From: Candidatus Bathyarchaeia archaeon
GTDB taxonomy: Archaea > Thermoproteota > Bathyarchaeia > Bathyarchaeales > Bathycorpusculaceae
NCBI GenBank assembly: GCA_038883655.1
Contig: JAVZLQ010000003.1
Coordinates: 96,001 to 160,000, forward strand
Length of the DNA: 64,000 bases
Direction: 5' to 3'
The stretch's first letter is position 1. Each line of letters begins with the position of its first letter. Below are positions 56,798 through 64,000 of this stretch, one piece after another. The position numbers and the translations under genes were made by a program. The notes beneath the pieces are model-generated. The model ran no database searches, was not told where the DNA came from, and worked only from the letters and a program-made list of their open reading frames with translations.

Positions 56798-57343
56798 CTA
56801 GCTTTTCAGAAGGTTTTCCCCATAATTATAGCCCATCTCGAAAGCTTTTAGGTTTAGCTCTTCAGTTCCTTTGGGCACATTGTCTTTGATGGCGTTTTTT
56901 AAAGCGTCCTTATCAACGAGTTTGGTGATTGCTGCAAAAGCACCAAGCATGACTATGTTGGCAACGATTTTTCTGCCAAGCTCTTCAGCAATCCGCGTGG
57001 CGGGCACACGAAAAACTTTTATGCCATGTAGATCTTTCTCATAAGGAATCATGTCTGGATCTAGAAGTACGGTTCCGCCAGCTTTCACGTTCCCAGCATA
57101 TTCGTTGTAGGCATGCTGAGACATCACAACGAGCACGTCTGGCTCGACAACTTTTGGAAAGTCTATGTTCTCTTCGGCTATCACAACTTCTGATTTGCAA
57201 GCGCCGCCCCTAGATTCTGGACCATAGGACTGCGTTTGAACAGCATTTTTCCCGCCATAAATACAAGCAGCTGATGCCACGATTATGCCAGACTTTATTA
57301 TGCCTTGACCACCGAAACCTGCAAACCTAACTTCAACTCGCAT
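56798..57343 (-). CDS. 2-oxoacid:ferredoxin oxidoreductase gamma subunit
   Basis: AGFGGQG, QSYGPESRGG, NIVMLGA. Confidence 0.92.
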   Translation of the reverse strand: MRVEVRFAGFGGQGIIKSGIIVASAACIYGGKNAVQTQSYGPESRGGACKSEVVIAEENIDFPKVVEPDVLVVMSQHAYNEYAGNVKAGGTVLLDPDMIPYEKDLHGIKVFRVPATRIAEELGRKIVANIVMLGAFAAITKLVDKDALKNAIKDNVPKGTEELNLKAFEMGYNYGENLLKS

Positions 57344-58190
57344 ATTTTGAATCACCCCACATCTTCTCTTCATTTATATGCGCTATCTTCTCATGAAGAA
57401 GCTTCTCGTAACTCACCTTATTTATATTTACAAATTCTCCAACAACTATTCTTTCCGGGGTTATTTCAGCCTTTGCGGGGTCGGAAAAGTTTTCCACGAC
57501 GGAGCTTCTTCTAAACCACTCCATCATTTCAAGCCCTGTTCTCATCTTGTTGTGTCTACCATAAATTTCGGGACACGGTGAAACAATTTCGATAAAACCG
57601 AAGCCATCTTTCTGTAAAAGCCTTTTAATTGACTGCGTTAGCCTACGCACATGGAGTGTTGTCCACCTAGCCACATAAGTTGCCCCAGAAGCCGCTGCAA
57701 GATGGACAAGGTTGAATGGATGCTCAATATTTCCGTACGGCGTTGTGGTTGTGATTGCTTCAAGCGGTGTTGTTGGTCCTTGCTGTCCGCCAGTCATTCC
57801 ATAGTTGAAGTTGTTTGCACAAATCACCTTTATCCCTATGTTTCTCCGCGCTGCATGTATAAAGTGGTTTCCACCAATAGCAAAGAGGTCGCCGTCGCCG
57901 CTTATGACGACTACTTCAAGGTTGGGGTTAGCAAGTTTCACCCCAGTGGCAAAGGCTATTGGGCGACCATGCGTTGTGTGAAAGGAGTTCGTGTTTATGT
58001 AGCCCGCAGCCCGCCCAATACAGCCAATTCCAGAAACAACCACAAGCTTGTCCAAGTCCATTTGCAGCTCATTCACAGCTTGAACAAAGCAGTTGAGTAT
58101 TATGCCGTTGCCACATCCAGAACACCATATGTGAGGCATCATAGCCTTTCGCAAATACCTTGAAAGCGGATGCTCAACCTCCGTTGTCAT
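57333..58190 (-). CDS. 2-oxoacid:ferredoxin oxidoreductase beta (TPP) subunit
   Basis: WCSGCG, SGIGC, HGR, GDGD..IGGNH, NYGMTGGQ. Confidence 0.93.
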   Translation of the reverse strand: MTTEVEHPLSRYLRKAMMPHIWCSGCGNGIILNCFVQAVNELQMDLDKLVVVSGIGCIGRAAGYINTNSFHTTHGRPIAFATGVKLANPNLEVVVISGDGDLFAIGGNHFIHAARRNIGIKVICANNFNYGMTGGQQGPTTPLEAITTTTPYGNIEHPFNLVHLAAASGATYVARWTTLHVRRLTQSIKRLLQKDGFGFIEIVSPCPEIYGRHNKMRTGLEMMEWFRRSSVVENFSDPAKAEITPERIVVGEFVNINKVSYEKLLHEKIAHINEEKMWGDSKYAS

Positions 58191-59350
58191 AAACTATTCC
58201 TCCTAATTTCCTCCAAAATTTCCATAGGCGTATGCGGTTCCTCACCCAACTTTGGAAGGAATGAAACCGGAGTTTCCTTTGCTGCTCTCTGAACCTCGCG
58301 TAAGATTTGACCACAGTTCATTTCCGCAACAACTATTTTCTTCGCTTTTCTAGCGGCTTTTTCCACGTGCTTCTCTGGGAAAGGCCACAGTGTTATTGGA
58401 CGAAGAAGACCCGCTTTTATTCCCTCTGCCCTAGCCTTTCTCACAGCGCTTAGTGCAGCCCTTGCAACTATACCGTAGGCTACAACCACGACATCCGCGT
58501 CCCCAAGCATAACCTCCTCAACCTTCACTATTTTGTCAGCGTTTTTCCTTATCTTGTCGCAGAGCCTTTTAACAAGACGCTCTTGAACTTCTGAACTTTG
58601 CGTTTGTGGATAACCATGCTCGTCGTGTGTCAAACCAGTAGCATGAAAAGCGAATCCTTCTCCAAAACAAGCCATGGGTGGAACAAGGTCGTCGTCGGGC
58701 ATGAATGGCAGATACTTTTCTGGCGGAACATTCGGCCTTTTGCGGTTAACAATTCTTAAATTTTCGGGTGGAGGAATCACCACTTTCTCCCACATGTGCC
58801 CAACAACTTCATCAGCCAGCAATATTGTTGGAACACGGTAAATCTCGGACAAGTTGAAGGCTTCAATTGTCAAGTCAAACATTTCTTGAACTGAGGAAGG
58901 CGACAAAGCAATAATTTCATAGTCTCCGTGAGAACCCCACTTGGCCTGCATAACGTCTTGCTGTCCCGGCAGTGTTGGCTGTCCCGTGCTCGGTCCACCG
59001 CGCATCACATCAACAATCACGCATGGAGTTTCTGTCATAACAGCCAAACCGATGTTCTCTTGCATTAAACTAAAGCCTGGCCCAGAAGTAGCGGTCATGG
59101 CCTTTAGTCCAGCATAGGACGCGCCTATAACCGCCGCAATTGATGCAATTTCGTCTTCCATTTGAATGTAAATTCCACCTACTTCTGGCATCCTTTCCGC
59201 GAGACGCTCGGCAATTTCCGTTGCTGGAGTAATTGGATATCCCGCGAAGAACCTGCAGCCCGCCACTACTGCTCCCTCTGCACATGCAAAGTCGCCGTTC
59301 ATGAAGTGGGCGCCCGTCAGTATAGCCTTCCTTTTAATTGTGCTTGACAT
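58187..59350 (-). CDS. 2-oxoacid:ferredoxin oxidoreductase alpha subunit (KorA-like)
   Basis: AGYPITP, QMEDE, TATSGPG, RGGPSTG. Confidence 0.93.
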   Translation of the reverse strand: MSSTIKRKAILTGAHFMNGDFACAEGAVVAGCRFFAGYPITPATEIAERLAERMPEVGGIYIQMEDEIASIAAVIGASYAGLKAMTATSGPGFSLMQENIGLAVMTETPCVIVDVMRGGPSTGQPTLPGQQDVMQAKWGSHGDYEIIALSPSSVQEMFDLTIEAFNLSEIYRVPTILLADEVVGHMWEKVVIPPPENLRIVNRKRPNVPPEKYLPFMPDDDLVPPMACFGEGFAFHATGLTHDEHGYPQTQSSEVQERLVKRLCDKIRKNADKIVKVEEVMLGDADVVVVAYGIVARAALSAVRKARAEGIKAGLLRPITLWPFPEKHVEKAARKAKKIVVAEMNCGQILREVQRAAKETPVSFLPKLGEEPHTPMEILEEIRRNSL

Positions 59351-59624
59351 TTTCTTTCAGCTCCTTCTTTTCAATCACAAATATTGCAAAATCTGGACAA
59401 ACTGAAGTGCAAAAACTGCATAAAACGCATTTGCTTTCGTCAACAACTCTTGGTGGATGAACGCCGCGCGCATTAATGTCATTTGATTCTTCTAAAACTT
59501 TTTGGGGACAGTATTGAATGCAGAAGCCGCAGCCTTTACACTGATCACGAATTATGTGAATTTCCGCTTTCGGCAGCATTGCTTTCTCGCTGTCAAGGGG
59601 TTTGCGCCAAATCCTTTCAGGCAT
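59334..59624 (-). CDS. 2-oxoacid:ferredoxin oxidoreductase delta subunit (2[4Fe-4S])
   Basis: CKGCGFCIQYCP and CVLCSFCTSVCPD. Confidence 0.9.
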   Translation of the reverse strand: MPERIWRKPLDSEKAMLPKAEIHIIRDQCKGCGFCIQYCPQKVLEESNDINARGVHPPRVVDESKCVLCSFCTSVCPDFAIFVIEKKELKENVKHN

Positions 59625-59627
59625 GCA

Positions 59628-62069
59628 TTAATTTCCTCCAAAAGCTTTTTCAAAAGCCTTTTTAGAGCGCTCTATTTCTTCAAGCGAAATTTTCTCTATC
59701 ATTTTTTGCATCTCACGGATTTTTGAGGCGATTCTTTCGCCTTCCGCCGCAGAAACCCACAAAAGTTGAAGCCTCTCCTTATTCAATTCCAACTGTTCCA
59801 TTCTTTTCCAGAAGCGTTCCACACGCCTTTGGGTTTGGTAGTTGGCGTTTATGTAGTGGCAATCTCCTGGATGACAACCAGCAACAAGCACTGCTGCGGC
59901 GCCTCTGGCGAAGGCTCTTTCGATGAATTTTGGTGAAACTCGTCCAGAACACATCGTTCTTATTATTCGGACACTTGGCGGATACTGCATTCTGCTCACT
60001 CCAGCGAAGTCCGCGCCTGCATAGGCGCACCAGTTGCAGCAGAAGGCAACAATCTTTCTATGTGCATCATGTTCCGTTACGGCGTCTATTTGCGCAAGAA
60101 TCTGCTTGTCTGTGAAGTGTTTTTGAGTTAAGGCTTCAAATGGGCATTCGGCTGCACATGTTCCACAGCCGCCGCAAGCCGCCTCTATCACTTCTACACG
60201 CTTAAGCTCTTTATTTAGCGTTAAAGCGTTGTAGGGACAAACTTTTGTGCAAAGTCCGCATGCCTTACATTTTTCCGTAAAAGTCACAGGTGTTATTGCC
60301 TCAACGGCTATTTTGCCCTTGGCCATTAAAATTCCAGCTCTAGCCGCGGCAGCGCTTGCTTGTGTCACGCTGTCCTTTATGTCTTTAGGCGCTTCGGCGC
60401 ATCCTGCAAAAAATATGCCGCCAGTTGCGGCATCCACGGGCCTAAGCTTTGGATGTGCTTCCATGAAGAACCCGTATTGTGTTCGGGAGAGAGTTAGCAG
60501 ACGCTGTATCACTTCGCTGTCTTTTCGCGGTTCCAAGCCAACTGACAAGATTACCATGTCAACATTTATTTTGTACAACTCTTTCTGCAACGTATTTTCG
60601 CCAACAAGCCACAGGCTATGCGTTTTCTTATCTTCAATTATTTCTGCTGGCAGCCCACGTATGAATTTGACGCCTTCCTCCCTTGCCCTTCTATAAAGAT
60701 CTTCGAACCCCTTGCCATAAGCCCGTATGTCAACATAGAAAACGTAAATTTCAGTTTCAGGCCAGTGCTCCTTGATTAGGAGGCTGTCCTTAATCGTGTT
60801 CATGCAGCAGACGTTGCTGCAGTATTGTCTTTCGTTTCTGTTTGAGCGGGAGCCGACGCATTGAACGAATGCCACGCGCTTTGGTATTTGCTTGTCGCTT
60901 GGCCTTATTAGGCGCCCGCCAGAGGGCCCACCAGCATTAATAAGCCTTTCAAATTCGAGCGACGTTATAACGTTTGGATATTTTCCATATCCATAGTTTG
61001 GCAAGTTTGAGGGGTCAAAAATGTCTGCGCCTGTTGCCACAATTATTGTGCCGACGTCGATTTCTATTGTTTCGGGTTTCATGTCAAAGTTTATGGCTTG
61101 TCTTTCACATGCGCGCATACATTTATCGCAGACAATTATGCCTTCCTTGTTTAGGCAGAGGTTCATGTCTATTATGTATGTTGCTGGAACCGCTTGCGCA
61201 AAAGGAGTGTAAATTGCGTGTCTCATGGCTAAGCCCGCGTCGAACTCATTTGGGGCTGTGACTGGACAAACTTTAGCACATTCGCCGCATGCAGAACAGT
61301 CCTTCGTGACGTATCGGGGTTTTTTCAGTATTTTTACATGAAAATTGCCGATGTAGCCCTTCACGTCTACAACTTCGCTGTTGGTTAAAAGCTCAATGTT
61401 CGGGTGATGCCCAACATCAGACATCTTAGGCGCAAGAATACATATTGAACAATCCATCGTTGGAAACGTCTTGTCTATCCGCGCCATCATGCCGCCGATG
61501 CTTGGCTCTTTCTCAACAAGATAAACTTCATAACCAGTATCTGCGAGATCTAAGGCGGCTTGAATTCCAGCAACACCGCCGCCAATAACCAACGTCTTTC
61601 GAAGTATTGGAACTTCAATCTCCTCAAGGGACTGAAGCAGAGCAGCCTTTGCAACAGCCATCTTCACCAAATCTTTGGCTTTTTCTGTGGCAGCTTCACG
61701 ATCATATAAGTGGACCCAACTGCATTGTTCGCGTATGTTCGCCATCTCAAAAAGGTACTTGTTCAGCCCAGCTTCCTCGCAAATCTTTCGGAATGTTGGT
61801 TCATGAAGGCGCGGCGAACAAGATGCCACAACAACACGGTTAAGCCTATGCTCCTTAATATCATTCTTTATCATGGCTTGCCCTTGATCTGAACACGTAT
61901 ATCTATAGTCCTTGGCAAGAACAACATGTGGAAGCGTAGAGGCGAATTTGGCTACTTCTTCACAATCCACAGAGCCAGCAATGTTCAATCCGCAATGGCA
62001 AACATAAACGCCTATACGAACCTCTTCAGAAACCTCACCAGCTTTCTGCTTCTCATCCTCAACCATCAC
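59628..62069 (-). CDS. hdrA: Heterodisulfide reductase subunit A fused to C-terminal MvhD
   Basis: GVYVCHCG.NI, CSP, NIREQC, GGGVAG, DKTFPT.DC, QCVGSR..CSNVCC, EAHPKL, ferredoxin inserts; MvhD CCNWC, MCSGR, GCHPGDCHY. Confidence 0.92.
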   Translation of the reverse strand: MMVEDEKQKAGEVSEEVRIGVYVCHCGLNIAGSVDCEEVAKFASTLPHVVLAKDYRYTCSDQGQAMIKNDIKEHRLNRVVVASCSPRLHEPTFRKICEEAGLNKYLFEMANIREQCSWVHLYDREAATEKAKDLVKMAVAKAALLQSLEEIEVPILRKTLVIGGGVAGIQAALDLADTGYEVYLVEKEPSIGGMMARIDKTFPTMDCSICILAPKMSDVGHHPNIELLTNSEVVDVKGYIGNFHVKILKKPRYVTKDCSACGECAKVCPVTAPNEFDAGLAMRHAIYTPFAQAVPATYIIDMNLCLNKEGIIVCDKCMRACERQAINFDMKPETIEIDVGTIIVATGADIFDPSNLPNYGYGKYPNVITSLEFERLINAGGPSGGRLIRPSDKQIPKRVAFVQCVGSRSNRNERQYCSNVCCMNTIKDSLLIKEHWPETEIYVFYVDIRAYGKGFEDLYRRAREEGVKFIRGLPAEIIEDKKTHSLWLVGENTLQKELYKINVDMVILSVGLEPRKDSEVIQRLLTLSRTQYGFFMEAHPKLRPVDAATGGIFFAGCAEAPKDIKDSVTQASAAAARAGILMAKGKIAVEAITPVTFTEKCKACGLCTKVCPYNALTLNKELKRVEVIEAACGGCGTCAAECPFEALTQKHFTDKQILAQIDAVTEHDAHRKIVAFCCNWCAYAGADFAGVSRMQYPPSVRIIRTMCSGRVSPKFIERAFARGAAAVLVAGCHPGDCHYINANYQTQRRVERFWKRMEQLELNKERLQLLWVSAAEGERIASKIREMQKMIEKISLEEIERSKKAFEKAFGGN

Positions 62070-62070
62070 T

Positions 62071-63525
62071 TCATGCCCCCTCAGCCTTCAAGTAGCGGTC
62101 AATTGAGTTGGCGGCACGCTTTCCAGCGCAAATAGCTTCAATAACTGACGCTGGACCGGTGACAACGTCTCCGCCAGCGAAAACTCCGCGCATACTTGTC
62201 TCCATGGTTATGGGGTTAACCCAAATTGTTCCATCTTCATTAAGAACAACGTCTTTAGGCAGAAACTCTAAGTCTGGGGTCTCGCCAATAGCCAAAATGA
62301 CAGTATCTGCTTTGAAAACAAACTCTGAACCTTCTATTGGCAACGGTTTTCTTCTACCAGACTCGTCTAATTCGCCTAGTTTCATGCGAATAAATTCGAT
62401 GGCTGAAATTCGTCCATCTTCTCCCAGAATCCTCTTCGGAGCCGTTAGAAACTCCATCTTTACGCCTGTTCCTTCCGCTTCTTTAACTTCCCATGGATTT
62501 GCGGGCATTTCAGCCTTTGACCTTCGATAAAATATTGTCACATTTTCTGCACCAAGTTCTAAAGCAGTCCTTGCAGCGTCTACAGCCACGTTTCCGCCGC
62601 CAATAACTGCAACGTTTTTGCCAAGCGCAACGTTTACACCGTTCTTGACACGCCACAGAAAATCTAAAGCGTTAACCACGCCTTCTAGGTCTTCACCCTC
62701 AATTTTAAGCTTCTGACTCTTGTGGGCACCGACACCAACAAAAATAGCCTTATAACTCTTATCCCACAAACTGTTAAAACTTAAGTCCTTACCAACATGC
62801 ACGTTAACCTTAAACTCAACACCTAAATTACTCAAGAAACATAATTCTTCCTCCAAAATATCCCTCGGCAAGCGATGCTCTGGTATGCACTTTCTAAGCA
62901 TCCCCCCCAGTTCTGGCAGAGACTCAAAAACCGTTATTGGATAGCCACGTTGAACAAGTTCATAAGCAACAGTTAAACCTGCGGGTCCAGAGCCCAAAAC
63001 AGCTACTTTACATTCATCGTCTTTTAGCGCCTTTCTTGTTTTTGGTTTAGTGCGCTTGTCTCGAATTTTTTCTAAAATGTCTTGTATGTTAAGTCCGACG
63101 CGTTCTGGATGCAAGCATACAAGTGTGACCACAAGGGGTAATGGGACGTTTCGTGCAACTTTTTGCAAAGCTTTTTCTATGGGATTTAAGCAACCTCGTT
63201 TCACGGCGATTGTTCGCATAACAAGAAAGATTTCCGGAACTTCCAGAGCTTGGGGGCATCGCCTATAACATTTGTAGCACCATGCGCAAAGCCAAAGCTC
63301 ATGTGAAGATAAAGCATCTTCAGCGTTTAAGAAAATTTTTCCAAGAAGCCCTCGTGGATTATAATCTTCGCCGAGCAGTTCAGCCATTGAACAGCTTGCA
63401 GTACAAATGCCACATTCAAAACAGTGCTTAAGCTTTTCAATGTTTAGAAGCCTTCTGATTTCTTCATGCGTTGTGGCTTCCGCAGTAGCCAAGACTTGAG
63501 CCCTCTCATAGTTTGAGTTTTCCAT
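62071..63525 (-). CDS. HdrC-like 2[4Fe-4S] domain fused to GltD/NfnB/SudA-like FAD-NAD(P) oxidoreductase
   Basis: N-terminal CFECGICTASC and LWLCAWCYKCYRRCP; then GSGPAG, IP..RLP, GGGNVAVD, YRR, FAGGD. Confidence 0.82.
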   Translation of the reverse strand: MENSNYERAQVLATAEATTHEEIRRLLNIEKLKHCFECGICTASCSMAELLGEDYNPRGLLGKIFLNAEDALSSHELWLCAWCYKCYRRCPQALEVPEIFLVMRTIAVKRGCLNPIEKALQKVARNVPLPLVVTLVCLHPERVGLNIQDILEKIRDKRTKPKTRKALKDDECKVAVLGSGPAGLTVAYELVQRGYPITVFESLPELGGMLRKCIPEHRLPRDILEEELCFLSNLGVEFKVNVHVGKDLSFNSLWDKSYKAIFVGVGAHKSQKLKIEGEDLEGVVNALDFLWRVKNGVNVALGKNVAVIGGGNVAVDAARTALELGAENVTIFYRRSKAEMPANPWEVKEAEGTGVKMEFLTAPKRILGEDGRISAIEFIRMKLGELDESGRRKPLPIEGSEFVFKADTVILAIGETPDLEFLPKDVVLNEDGTIWVNPITMETSMRGVFAGGDVVTGPASVIEAICAGKRAANSIDRYLKAEGA

Positions 63526-63635
63526 GGATATAAAGGTTTACAAACGTAAAGGTTTCTAAATAACGCTCAACTCTACAAATGCGCAAGCACATTTTATAAG
63601 CTAAAATGGTGAAAAGAAAGGAAGGTGAAATGCAA

Positions 63636-64000
63636 ATGCGAAAAATAAGGGTTATTTTATTTGGCGTTGGTGCCGTTGGAACGCTGATCGCCAAATTTCT
63701 ATTAGAGAAAGATGGAATCGAAATTGTTGGGGCCGTGGACATCGCGAAAGATAAAGTAGGCAAAGACTTAGGTGAAGTGTTAGGAGTTCAAAGATGTCTT
63801 GGAATAAAGATTTTAAACAATGTGGATGAAGCATTGTCAAAGGTTAAAGCAGATCTGGCAATTCACACAACAACATCCTATCTCAAAGACACGTACCAGC
63901 AAATAGCTTCACTCATAAAAAACAGCGTAAAAGTGATATCCACATGTGAAGAATTAACTTACCCATACTACACCGAGCCAAAACTTGCAAAAGAATTAGA
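63636..64000 (+). CDS. NAD(P)-dependent amine/2,4-diaminopentanoate dehydrogenase-like (DapB-like N-terminus), 3' truncated
   Basis: Read manually: MRKIRVILFGVGAVG...IVGAVD..KVGKDLGE...HTTTS..VISTCEELTYP; SD AGGTGA; open to the window end. Confidence 0.75.
   Translation, partial: MRKIRVILFGVGAVGTLIAKFLLEKDGIEIVGAVDIAKDKVGKDLGEVLGVQRCLGIKILNNVDEALSKVKADLAIHTTTSYLKDTYQQIASLIKNSVKVISTCEELTYPYYTEPKLAKEL

Follow-up and report, generated by a model that had tools for sequence, protein, structure and literature searches.

A HdrC-like::GltD flavoprotein, HdrA::MvhD and a 2-oxoacid:ferredoxin oxidoreductase in one archaeal operon: a candidate heterodisulfide-free, NADP(H)-linked electron-bifurcating complex

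HdrA complexes are the best-understood iron-sulfur-wired electron bifurcases, and to our knowledge every characterised one ends in a disulfide-reducing site of the HdrB type. Bathyarchaeia and other non-methanogens have many hdrA genes and no known heterodisulfide (PMC7886697). What could an HdrA serve in such an organism? The question is raised by an operon in a 64,000-nt stretch of DNA (the window, G000:C3:96001-160000) from an uncultured hot-spring Bathyarchaeon, whose genome comprises 1.42 Mb in 19 contigs and is 93% complete; DNA of the window is carried by hot-spring metagenomes. Six open reading frames (ORFs) are packed on the minus strand at 56798-63525 in the ORF listing. The initial annotation had read them as hdrC::gltD-like, hdrA::mvhD and the delta, alpha, beta and gamma genes of a 2-oxoacid:ferredoxin oxidoreductase (OFOR), and this order is borne out by the ORFs together with Pfam and NCBIfam matches. 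We put at roughly 55% the probability that the operon encodes a heterodisulfide-free, HdrA-family flavin-based electron-bifurcating complex that is linked to NADP(H) and serves low-potential enzymes. The features of the operon are as follows.

62071..63525, minus strand: HdrC-like::GltD/NfnB-like flavoprotein, 484 aa (P0001), assigned from the ORF, Pfam, NCBIfam and PDB matches, a structural model and Foldseek
63166..63438, minus strand: HdrC-type 2x[4Fe-4S] domain of this protein, aa 30-120, with C35-x2-C38-x2-C41-x3-C45 and C80-x2-C83-x2-C86-x3-C90-P
62080..63018, minus strand: FAD/NADP(H) domains of the same protein, aa 170-482, with the FAD motif GSGPAG, GGGNVA (GxGxxA) and YRRS..EMPA
59628..62069, minus strand: HdrA::MvhD fusion, 813 aa (P0002), GTG start, HdrA2 subclass by NF040770 and the 5odc_A match
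59685..60059, minus strand: MvhD domain of the fusion, aa 671-795 (PF02662, 171 bits; 5odc_D, E 1.7e-44)
59334..59624, minus strand: OFOR delta, 2x[4Fe-4S], 96 aa (best match OGOR_delta, 67.6 bits, below the cut-off of 125)
58187..59350, minus strand: OFOR alpha, 387 aa (POR_N, PFOR_II; PRK08659, 595 bits, above the cut-off of 411)
57333..58190, minus strand: OFOR beta, TPP-binding, 285 aa (PF02775; PRK09628, 269.6 bits, below the cut-off of 364)
56798..57343, minus strand: OFOR gamma, 181 aa from Met11 (the longest ORF has 191 aa and reaches 57373; PF01558; PRK08537, 250.7 bits, above the cut-off of 235)

From 5′ to 3′ the ORF coordinates give a 1-nt gap, a 3-nt gap, a 17-nt overlap and a 4-nt overlap, as first annotated. 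At the last junction beta and gamma overlap by 41 nt when the longest gamma ORF is used, and by 11 nt with Met11 (57343) as the gamma start. The PRK08537 match begins at residue 11 of this longest ORF. The operon is taken to consist of six genes because it is flanked on one side by a convergent gene for ribosomal protein S3Ae and on the other by a divergent gene of the 2,4-diaminopentanoate-dehydrogenase family (Ord-like below). Between these bounds there is no hdrB, hydrogenase or fdh gene, again in line with the first reading.

In the 484-aa protein Pfam places an N-terminal Fer4_8/HdrC-like dicluster at aa 32-92. Two CX2CX2CX3C(P) motifs lie in a dicluster fold, as judged from the motifs themselves, from Fer4_8 and Fer4_17, and from the solved HdrC 5odc_C, whose residues 28-114 are matched by residues 29-117 (E 5.9e-17). 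C35, C38, C41, C45, C86 and C90 are invariant in 43/43 sequences, C80 and C83 in 38 of the 43. The HdrC profile TIGR03290 scores 70.2 bits against a cut-off of 160 and is covered only at positions 2-87 of 144, the C-terminal part that holds HdrB being absent from the match. It is for this reason that we name the N-terminus HdrC-like and not HdrC.

The remainder of the protein contains Pyr_redox_2 (aa 173-466), and its best NCBIfam matches are of the GltD/NfnB type, all below cut-off. Among PDB sequences, residues 173-481 match the NADPH modules of NfnABC, StnC, NfnB, GltD and DPD, the best matches being NfnA of 9n5u_A (E 4e-98) and also NfnB of 5jca_L and 4ylf_B. Both Rossmann domains, for FAD and for NADPH, are present with GxGxxG, GxGxxA and YRR motifs. 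G309, G310, G311, A314, Y333, R334 and R335 are invariant in an alignment of 42 relatives (39-82% identical); the YRR motif we take to be NADP-specific. Together with the GxGxxA rule for NADP (PMC12054007), this invariance points to NADP(H) specificity, as far as motifs can indicate it.

A match to Fer4_20 (PF14691) was found neither in the window protein nor in its L075 homologue. Five bacterial relatives keep this canonical GltD domain, and the two of their N-termini that were scanned gave 83-89 bits. Only C137 is left of the canonical CGRVCxHPCExxC motif, and a remnant of the second GltD motif persists (PLPL..VC.HPER). The possibility that the N-terminus is merely a divergent canonical GltD N-terminus was ruled out by this contrast with the bacterial relatives. 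No GltB or NfnA partner was found in the operon, the rest of the genome not having been searched for either. For an AlphaFold model of the protein (pLDDT 89.9, pTM 0.89) Foldseek gave alignments that span almost the entire chain, with NfnI-L (478 columns), NfnABC, StnC, GltD and DPD, from which it follows that the HdrC-type domain takes the general place of the usual Fe-S domain beside the FAD. Domain HMM search, PDB matches and Foldseek together thus support the reading of the protein as an HdrC-type dicluster domain joined to a GltD/NfnB flavoprotein of the NADP(H) type.

The second gene encodes an HdrA with all its expected parts. Residues 15-664 match 5odc_A over its whole length (residues 2-649, 857 bits), including the thioredoxin-reductase-like FAD domain and all [4Fe-4S] motifs, those of the inserted and C-terminal ferredoxin domains among them. 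With its fused MvhD and a score of 1273.4 bits against NF040770 (cut-off 1100) it belongs to the MvhD-fused HdrA2 subclass. The cysteines of the cluster motifs are all invariant in 38 sequences, and so are the residues of LEFERL (aa 371-376) and EAHPKL (aa 537-542), two motifs already picked out in the initial annotation. The bifurcating flavoprotein therefore looks intact and strongly constrained: identity with 36 orthologues is 72-95%, as compared with 54% for a paralogue on contig C1 of the same genome. The remaining four genes form a four-subunit OFOR of the KOR/OGOR type, alpha and gamma scoring above cut-off and beta and delta having OGOR-type best matches below it.

To see how far the arrangement extends, 80 related loci were retrieved and their gene content was assigned by tblastn:

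all six genes in order (GltD fusion, HdrA::MvhD, OFOR delta, alpha, beta, gamma): 51/80 loci
same order, OFOR partial before the contig end: 3/80 loci
contig stops after HdrA: 11/80 loci
pair of GltD fusion and HdrA::MvhD without OFOR although there is room: 3/80 loci
no HdrA with 60% identity or more next to the first gene on the same strand: 11/80 loci
contig stops after the first gene: 1/80 loci

The order is consistent in 54 of the 57 loci that have an adjacent HdrA and enough room, and is complete also on an Atabeyarchaeia chromosome (L081). The eleven loci without adjacent HdrA comprise the five bacterial ones, BA2, L087 and four more in which HdrA is divergent or absent. According to our table, about 28 of 300 other sampled Bathyarchaeia genomes carry the full-length fusion, so that the operon is widespread but patchy. 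Both the fusion and the gene order are conserved in this synteny survey, and the six-gene arrangement is more than chance.

Several of these loci have peculiarities of their own. On the Chloroflexota-labelled contig L087 (5575-12215 and 16548-19148) the OFOR genes delta-alpha-beta-gamma are followed by a 971-aa ORF that contains the GltD-fusion part together with fragments of HdrA and MvhD. The contig also carries a separate HdrA::MvhD (59% identity) with a single in-frame TGA, at codon 212, which may encode selenocysteine. The contigs of L050, L066 and L069 are binned as Anaerolineales and Krumholzibacteriaceae and carry genes of the Bathyarchaeia type with HdrA at 79% identity, which suggests mis-binning. 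The label 'Thermococci' of L069 may mean Theionarchaea-like archaea, which are placed with Thermococci in a published account.

Does such conservation reflect function or only common descent? It could be that the two upstream genes and the OFOR encode unrelated enzymes that stay together through synteny across the lineage. In many of the 80 loci the synteny takes in the whole region, with the genes for S3Ae and seryl-tRNA synthetase and the Ord-like gene, so that kinship inflates the counts. Against this, the link between OFOR and HdrA is seen repeatedly, in two different gene orders and at least three clades of HdrA, is found on the Chloroflexota contig and the Atabeyarchaeia chromosome as well, and involves gene junctions that are tight or overlapping. 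Mere neighbourhood is consequently a very improbable explanation. A further 31 OFOR loci were compared; they were selected from the upper end of the homologue table, where OFOR-alpha identity is 61-71%, and are hence not a random sample. HdrA, or HdrA::MvhD, directly follows gamma in 12 of them; the OFOR-HdrA link is independent of GltD. A further 12 have no HdrA nearby, four could not be judged, and the others are L119 (hdrC-hdrB-hdrA::mvhD), L116 (HdrB and HdrA 3 kb away) and L117, which is rearranged. In L117 (G123:C1:1471000-1487000) an N-terminally short GltD fusion, HdrA::MvhD (81%) and delta (74%) lie on one strand; a more distant OFOR delta-alpha-beta-gamma (65%) is convergent to the pair, and the operon's own alpha, beta and gamma are missing.

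The initial annotation had placed the NAD(P)-linked flavoprotein in the position of HdrB. Three loci without the GltD fusion bear on this, L094 and L119 being from other Bathyarchaeia. L094 has the order hdrC, hdrB, korDABG, hdrA::mvhD. In L119 korDABG is followed by hdrC (TIGR03290, 88 bits), hdrB (TIGR03288, 360 bits, cut-off 345) and hdrA::mvhD at 66% identity, and in L102 HdrC and HdrB are divergent, with OFOR and hdrA::mvhD. HdrB-like genes were found near only 2 of the 80 GltD-fusion loci. HdrC::GltD and HdrC+HdrB thus alternate in OFOR operons and are mutually exclusive in those seen. Phylogeny agrees with this: in a quick IQ-TREE analysis of 34 HdrA rows, with several long branches flagged and deeper nodes unresolved, all 17 GltD-linked HdrAs form one clade (SH-aLRT 100) with the L119 HdrA as sister (SH-aLRT 99), and nine OFOR-downstream HdrAs form another (SH-aLRT 95). 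Since L094 and L119 carry canonical HdrC and HdrB and the L119 HdrA is sister to the GltD-linked ones, HdrC::GltD stands where HdrC and HdrB stand. The proposal holds in this positional sense; the genome as a whole keeps HdrB and HdrC elsewhere.

The pair of HdrC::GltD and HdrA::MvhD is also portable. In L069 and L075 it lies in the order mtd, ftr, GltD fusion, HdrA::MvhD, fwdD/B, fwdA, fwdC, so that formylmethanofuran dehydrogenase takes the place of OFOR. A FwdF-like polyferredoxin comes next after the pair in L076, and the pair of L072 has a polyferredoxin and an AOR-like gene as neighbours. Within the GltD-linked clade the polyferredoxin-linked and Fwd-linked HdrAs branch first. This mobility could be explained if the pair were a self-contained NADPH:ferredoxin oxidoreductase, similar to FNR or Nfn, which reaches the OFOR through free ferredoxin only, the operon being a matter of co-regulation. 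The pair does move as a unit, both in these loci and in the two-gene difference seen at L091 (below), the family scores of the OFOR are those of an ordinary four-subunit enzyme, and orthologues of the OFOR occur without the pair. On the other hand, the pair always lies directly beside a ferredoxin-level enzyme with gaps of 1-3 nt, HdrA alone follows the OFOR in those 12 of the 31 further loci, and in the solved Hdr-Fmd supercomplexes HdrA is hard-wired to its low-potential client (PMC13580544). On balance we consider a free-standing oxidoreductase unlikely.

Could HdrB be supplied by another locus? Besides three HdrB genes of 292-302 aa, the genome encodes one HdrCB fusion and two longer proteins with CCG domains. 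Canonical HdrB/HdrC occur with MvhA in at least three other clusters, so that the absence of hdrB and hydrogenase genes, which had been noted for the operon, does not extend to the genome; each of these clusters has its own HdrA. Four MvhA-type genes adjoin other HdrA genes (two on contig C4, one each on C6 and C18); MvhD is a separate ORF in the three MvhA clusters where it was seen and was not seen on C18, a cut contig. One cluster (G000:C4:64236-74011, equal to L125:1236-11011) encodes a canonical Fer4_20 GltD-like protein (575 aa, with a C-terminal dicluster), an MvhD-like protein (247 aa), a double-flavin HdrA (1009 aa), MvhD, HdrC, HdrB, MvhG and MvhA, and by its gene content looks like an NADPH- and H2-linked Hdr that keeps HdrBC. 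Within one genome, then, the NADPH module goes with an MvhD-type adaptor where HdrBC and hydrogenase are kept and, where there is no HdrB, forms a fusion with an HdrC-type adaptor. A second HdrA::MvhD of the genome (G000:C1:369567-372961, L089:7568-10961; 815 aa, 54-55% identical) is preceded by a 321-aa polyferredoxin, an arrangement reported for M. acetivorans hdrA2, and has a convergent amino-acid permease gene downstream.

These genes are relevant to a further explanation, in which NADPH is the mid-potential donor and the 484-aa protein an input module comparable to Mvh, Fdh or Elp; HdrBC from elsewhere would reduce a disulfide, and the second electron would be driven uphill into the OFOR for 2-oxoacid synthesis. 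Such a split, from about -320 mV to about -140 and -500 mV, is thermodynamically the most comfortable, and the HdrB, HdrCB and CCG-domain genes listed above could supply the partner. Potentials of -140 and -520 mV are quoted in PMC5296606. However, the adaptor fused to GltD is of the HdrC and not the MvhD type, in the C4 cluster with HdrBC the GltD-like protein keeps Fer4_20 and adjoins an MvhD-like gene, HdrCB and the GltD fusion exclude each other in the OFOR operons seen, and each HdrBC of the host has its own adjacent HdrA. We therefore regard this explanation as improbable.

Our preferred reading remains an HdrA bifurcase with NADP(H) in place of the heterodisulfide. By analogy with HdrABC, the HdrC-type dicluster of the 484-aa protein would dock on HdrA at the HdrC site and would connect the flavin of HdrA with the FAD in the GltD/NfnB-like portion. 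This FAD would exchange hydride with NADP(H), which would take the place held in HdrABC by HdrB's disulfide site. Low-potential electrons (about -500 mV) would pass between the ferredoxin domains of HdrA and the OFOR of the KOR type, either through delta or through free ferredoxin. The pair may thus be a portable adaptor between the NADP(H) pool and CO2-releasing or CO2-fixing enzymes of very low potential, such as OFOR and formylmethanofuran dehydrogenase, or polyferredoxin. Domain content, conservation, replacement of HdrC and HdrB in the gene order, and portability support the core of this reading, namely NADP(H) at the HdrB position and an HdrA serving a ferredoxin-level enzyme; the docking, the electron path and the substrates of the complex are what we infer.

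Two forms of this complex can be envisaged. The first is a three-terminal bifurcating or confurcating complex in which the HdrC arm would serve NADP(H), the low-potential arm OFOR and the MvhD arm some further, mid-potential partner; we consider it a real possibility, at somewhat less than even odds. The second, which we hold tentatively, is a linear 2-oxoacid:NADP+ oxidoreductase, by analogy with the ferredoxin:heterodisulfide activity of the M. acetivorans HdrA2B2C2.

A number of observations weigh against the preferred reading. A bifurcating flavin has to have three redox terminals, of which NADP(H) and a ferredoxin-level enzyme supply only two. For the three-terminal form no linked candidate for the third partner was found, and there is no hydrogenase near any of the 80 loci (MvhA near 0/80), which leaves hydrogen as third terminal unsupported by linkage; the MvhA-type genes of the host sit by other HdrAs. 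Markers of F420 were not found in the 93%-complete genome (CofH below cut-off, no Mtd, no FrhB/FdhB). For the linear form, an HdrA so large and so highly conserved seems needless for a simple wire. No extra docking domain was detected by Pfam and NCBIfam in the 96-aa OFOR delta. Moreover, in three close relatives (G163, G256 and G265) the OFOR, which is 82% identical, is not accompanied by the two-gene pair. At L091 (G163:C1:8000-22000) the Ord-like gene, OFOR delta-alpha-beta-gamma, S3Ae and seryl-tRNA synthetase are all in place, and the GltD fusion and HdrA::MvhD are absent. L091 and the window, which come from different genera of one family, differ cleanly by the presence or absence of two genes. 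The OFOR is therefore not dependent on the pair, the flanks being the same and exactly these two genes missing, and as it occurs without the pair in close relatives (L091-L093), 'directly coupled' is something that we infer. To this are added the 12 of 31 further OFOR loci without HdrA nearby.

F420H2 as third substrate, suggested by the analogy with HdrA2, was set aside for the host genome because CofH, Mtd and FrhB were not found there; the Fwd-linked loci L069 and L075, unlike the host genome, carry mtd. Co-occurrence with hydrogenase did not discriminate, PF00374 being present in 257/301 sampled Bathyarchaeia genomes and in 26 of about 28 with the full-length fusion; the fusion genomes without it, G043 and G101, are 77-78% complete. 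The host genome has FwdA twice (C2 and C11) with Mtd, FrhB/FdhB and CofH not found, which is odd for a C1 pathway of the H4MPT type.

How does the operon compare with known systems? The methanogen MvhAGD-HdrABC complex and the Mvh/Fdh/Elp-Hdr-Fmd(Fwd) supercomplexes have been solved (PDB 5odc, 7bkb, 8rvu, 9sw6; PMC13580544, PMC12350162). As judged from sequence matches, the operon shares with Hdr-Fmd an HdrA with the full cofactor set, the MvhD module and an HdrC-type dicluster adaptor; it also encodes a CO2-fixing or CO2-releasing enzyme working near -500 mV, and Fwd itself takes this place in L069 and L075. Unlike Hdr-Fmd, it has no HdrB, disulfide site or polyferredoxin, and no hydrogenase, Fdh or Elp donor in or near it; its client is an OFOR, and its HdrC arm probably has NADP(H) as substrate. 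The HdrA2B2C2 complex of M. acetivorans is reported to have ferredoxin:heterodisulfide activity, with transfer from ferredoxin to the acceptor through HdrC, and MvhD-fused HdrA2 homologues are described as absent from obligate H2/CO2 methanogens (both in PMC5296606). Here too HdrA is fused to MvhD and there is no dedicated hydrogenase, and the C1 paralogue of the host has a polyferredoxin neighbour. HdrB2C2, with which HdrA2 works, is replaced by HdrC::GltD: the operon has no HdrB, HdrB-like genes are near those 2 of the 80 loci, and HdrBC is encoded elsewhere in the genome. F420H2 is an unlikely donor in the host, given that the F420 markers were not found.

HdrL of sulfate reducers likewise joins a module of the NfnB/GltD type to the HdrA machinery. 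In type III HdrA (HdrA9-11) a GltD/NfnB domain is inserted into the HdrA ferredoxin domain and HdrBC or Mvh is kept (PMC12054007, PMC9012536). The operon resembles these in coupling a pyridine-nucleotide module of the NfnB/GltD type with HdrA, and differs in that its GltD stands outside HdrA, in a protein of its own together with an HdrC-type domain, and in that it lacks HdrB. The closest solved relatives of aa 170-482 are NfnAB, NfnABC and StnABC (PDB 5jca, 4ylf, 9bov, 9n5u, 8oh5), with E 4e-98 to 3e-74 and Foldseek TMq 0.66-0.70. The operon protein has the NADPH-type motifs of this group; in contrast to them, Fer4_20 is replaced, no NfnA/PyrK-like or Bfu partner is encoded in the operon, and the partner is HdrA. 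Phenylglyoxylate:NAD+ oxidoreductase (PadEFGHI) and the 2-oxoglutarate:NADP+ oxidoreductase of Azoarcus combine an OFOR core with an extra flavoprotein as a possible electron route to NAD(P)+. These enzymes, unlike the operon, use a simple extra subunit, and we know of no such pyridine-nucleotide-linked OFOR that contains HdrA or MvhD; the Pad models of NCBIfam are weak matches to the operon proteins.

No description of the operon was found in the searchable full-text literature, subscription journals and bioRxiv supplements lying outside the search. Already in print are GltD inserted into HdrA, HdrA2B2C2 and the Hdr-Fmd supercomplexes (PMC12054007, PMC9012536, PMC5296606, PMC13580544, PMC12350162). 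New are the alternation with HdrCB, the sister relation of L119, the Fwd-linked form of the pair, the two-gene indel and the contrast with the C4 cluster. If the preferred reading is true, the orphan Hdr systems of non-methanogens would gain a defined and assayable set of substrates, and it would be seen how abundant archaea of sediments and hot springs keep NADPH and ferredoxin in balance with CO2 fixation or amino-acid fermentation. The series of natural operon variants, from HdrC+HdrB to HdrC::GltD and with OFOR, Fwd or polyferredoxin as clients, makes the replacement hypothesis directly testable.

A wider proposal, which we regard as rather doubtful, is that Bathyarchaeia and some Hadarchaeota-like and Asgard archaea possess a non-methanogen counterpart of Hdr-Fmd: an HdrA bifurcase without a heterodisulfide, with NADP(H) on the HdrB arm, hard-wired to a 2-oxoacid synthase or to formylmethanofuran dehydrogenase. 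If true, it would drive or harvest low-potential carbon chemistry directly against the NADP(H) pool. In one variant the 2-oxoacid would be the donor, its electrons being split to NADP+ and to an acceptor below the potential of ferredoxin.

Upstream of the operon two further features were recorded.

63526..63605, no strand: 80-nt divergent intergenic region common to the operon and the Ord-like gene, from reading of the sequence
63606..64000, plus strand: Ord-like NAD(P) enzyme of the 2,4-diaminopentanoate-dehydrogenase family, 357 aa, running off the window (PF19328, 186 bits on L090:9606-10679)

In the intergenic region the A/T-rich boxes TTTATAT and TTATTTAG precede the ATG and are a putative promoter. 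A scan for bacterial promoters and terminators, which is not applicable to archaea, was at the level of shuffled sequence (13 vs 10.5 expected and 10 vs 8.9). Among the sequencing runs that carry operon DNA no RNA run is on record; two 'metatranscriptomic' runs are flagged 'probably DNA', their short contigs cover the operon and its flanks alike, and no conclusion on expression is drawn from them.

Of the 71 loci with 1.3 kb or more of sequence upstream, 54 have the Ord-like gene nearby, as a rule 86-170 nt away from the operon start. As a divergent neighbour it hints at amino-acid catabolism; lineage synteny may equally explain the linkage. Its homologue in L015 scores 349 bits against NF040740, below the cut-off of 400. 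In the same locus (L015:1436-8862) the stretch between the Ord-like gene and the GltD fusion encodes a TfrA-like fumarate reductase flavoprotein, a 232-aa protein without family match, a divergent HdrB/TfrB-like protein and an extra HdrA (43% identity).

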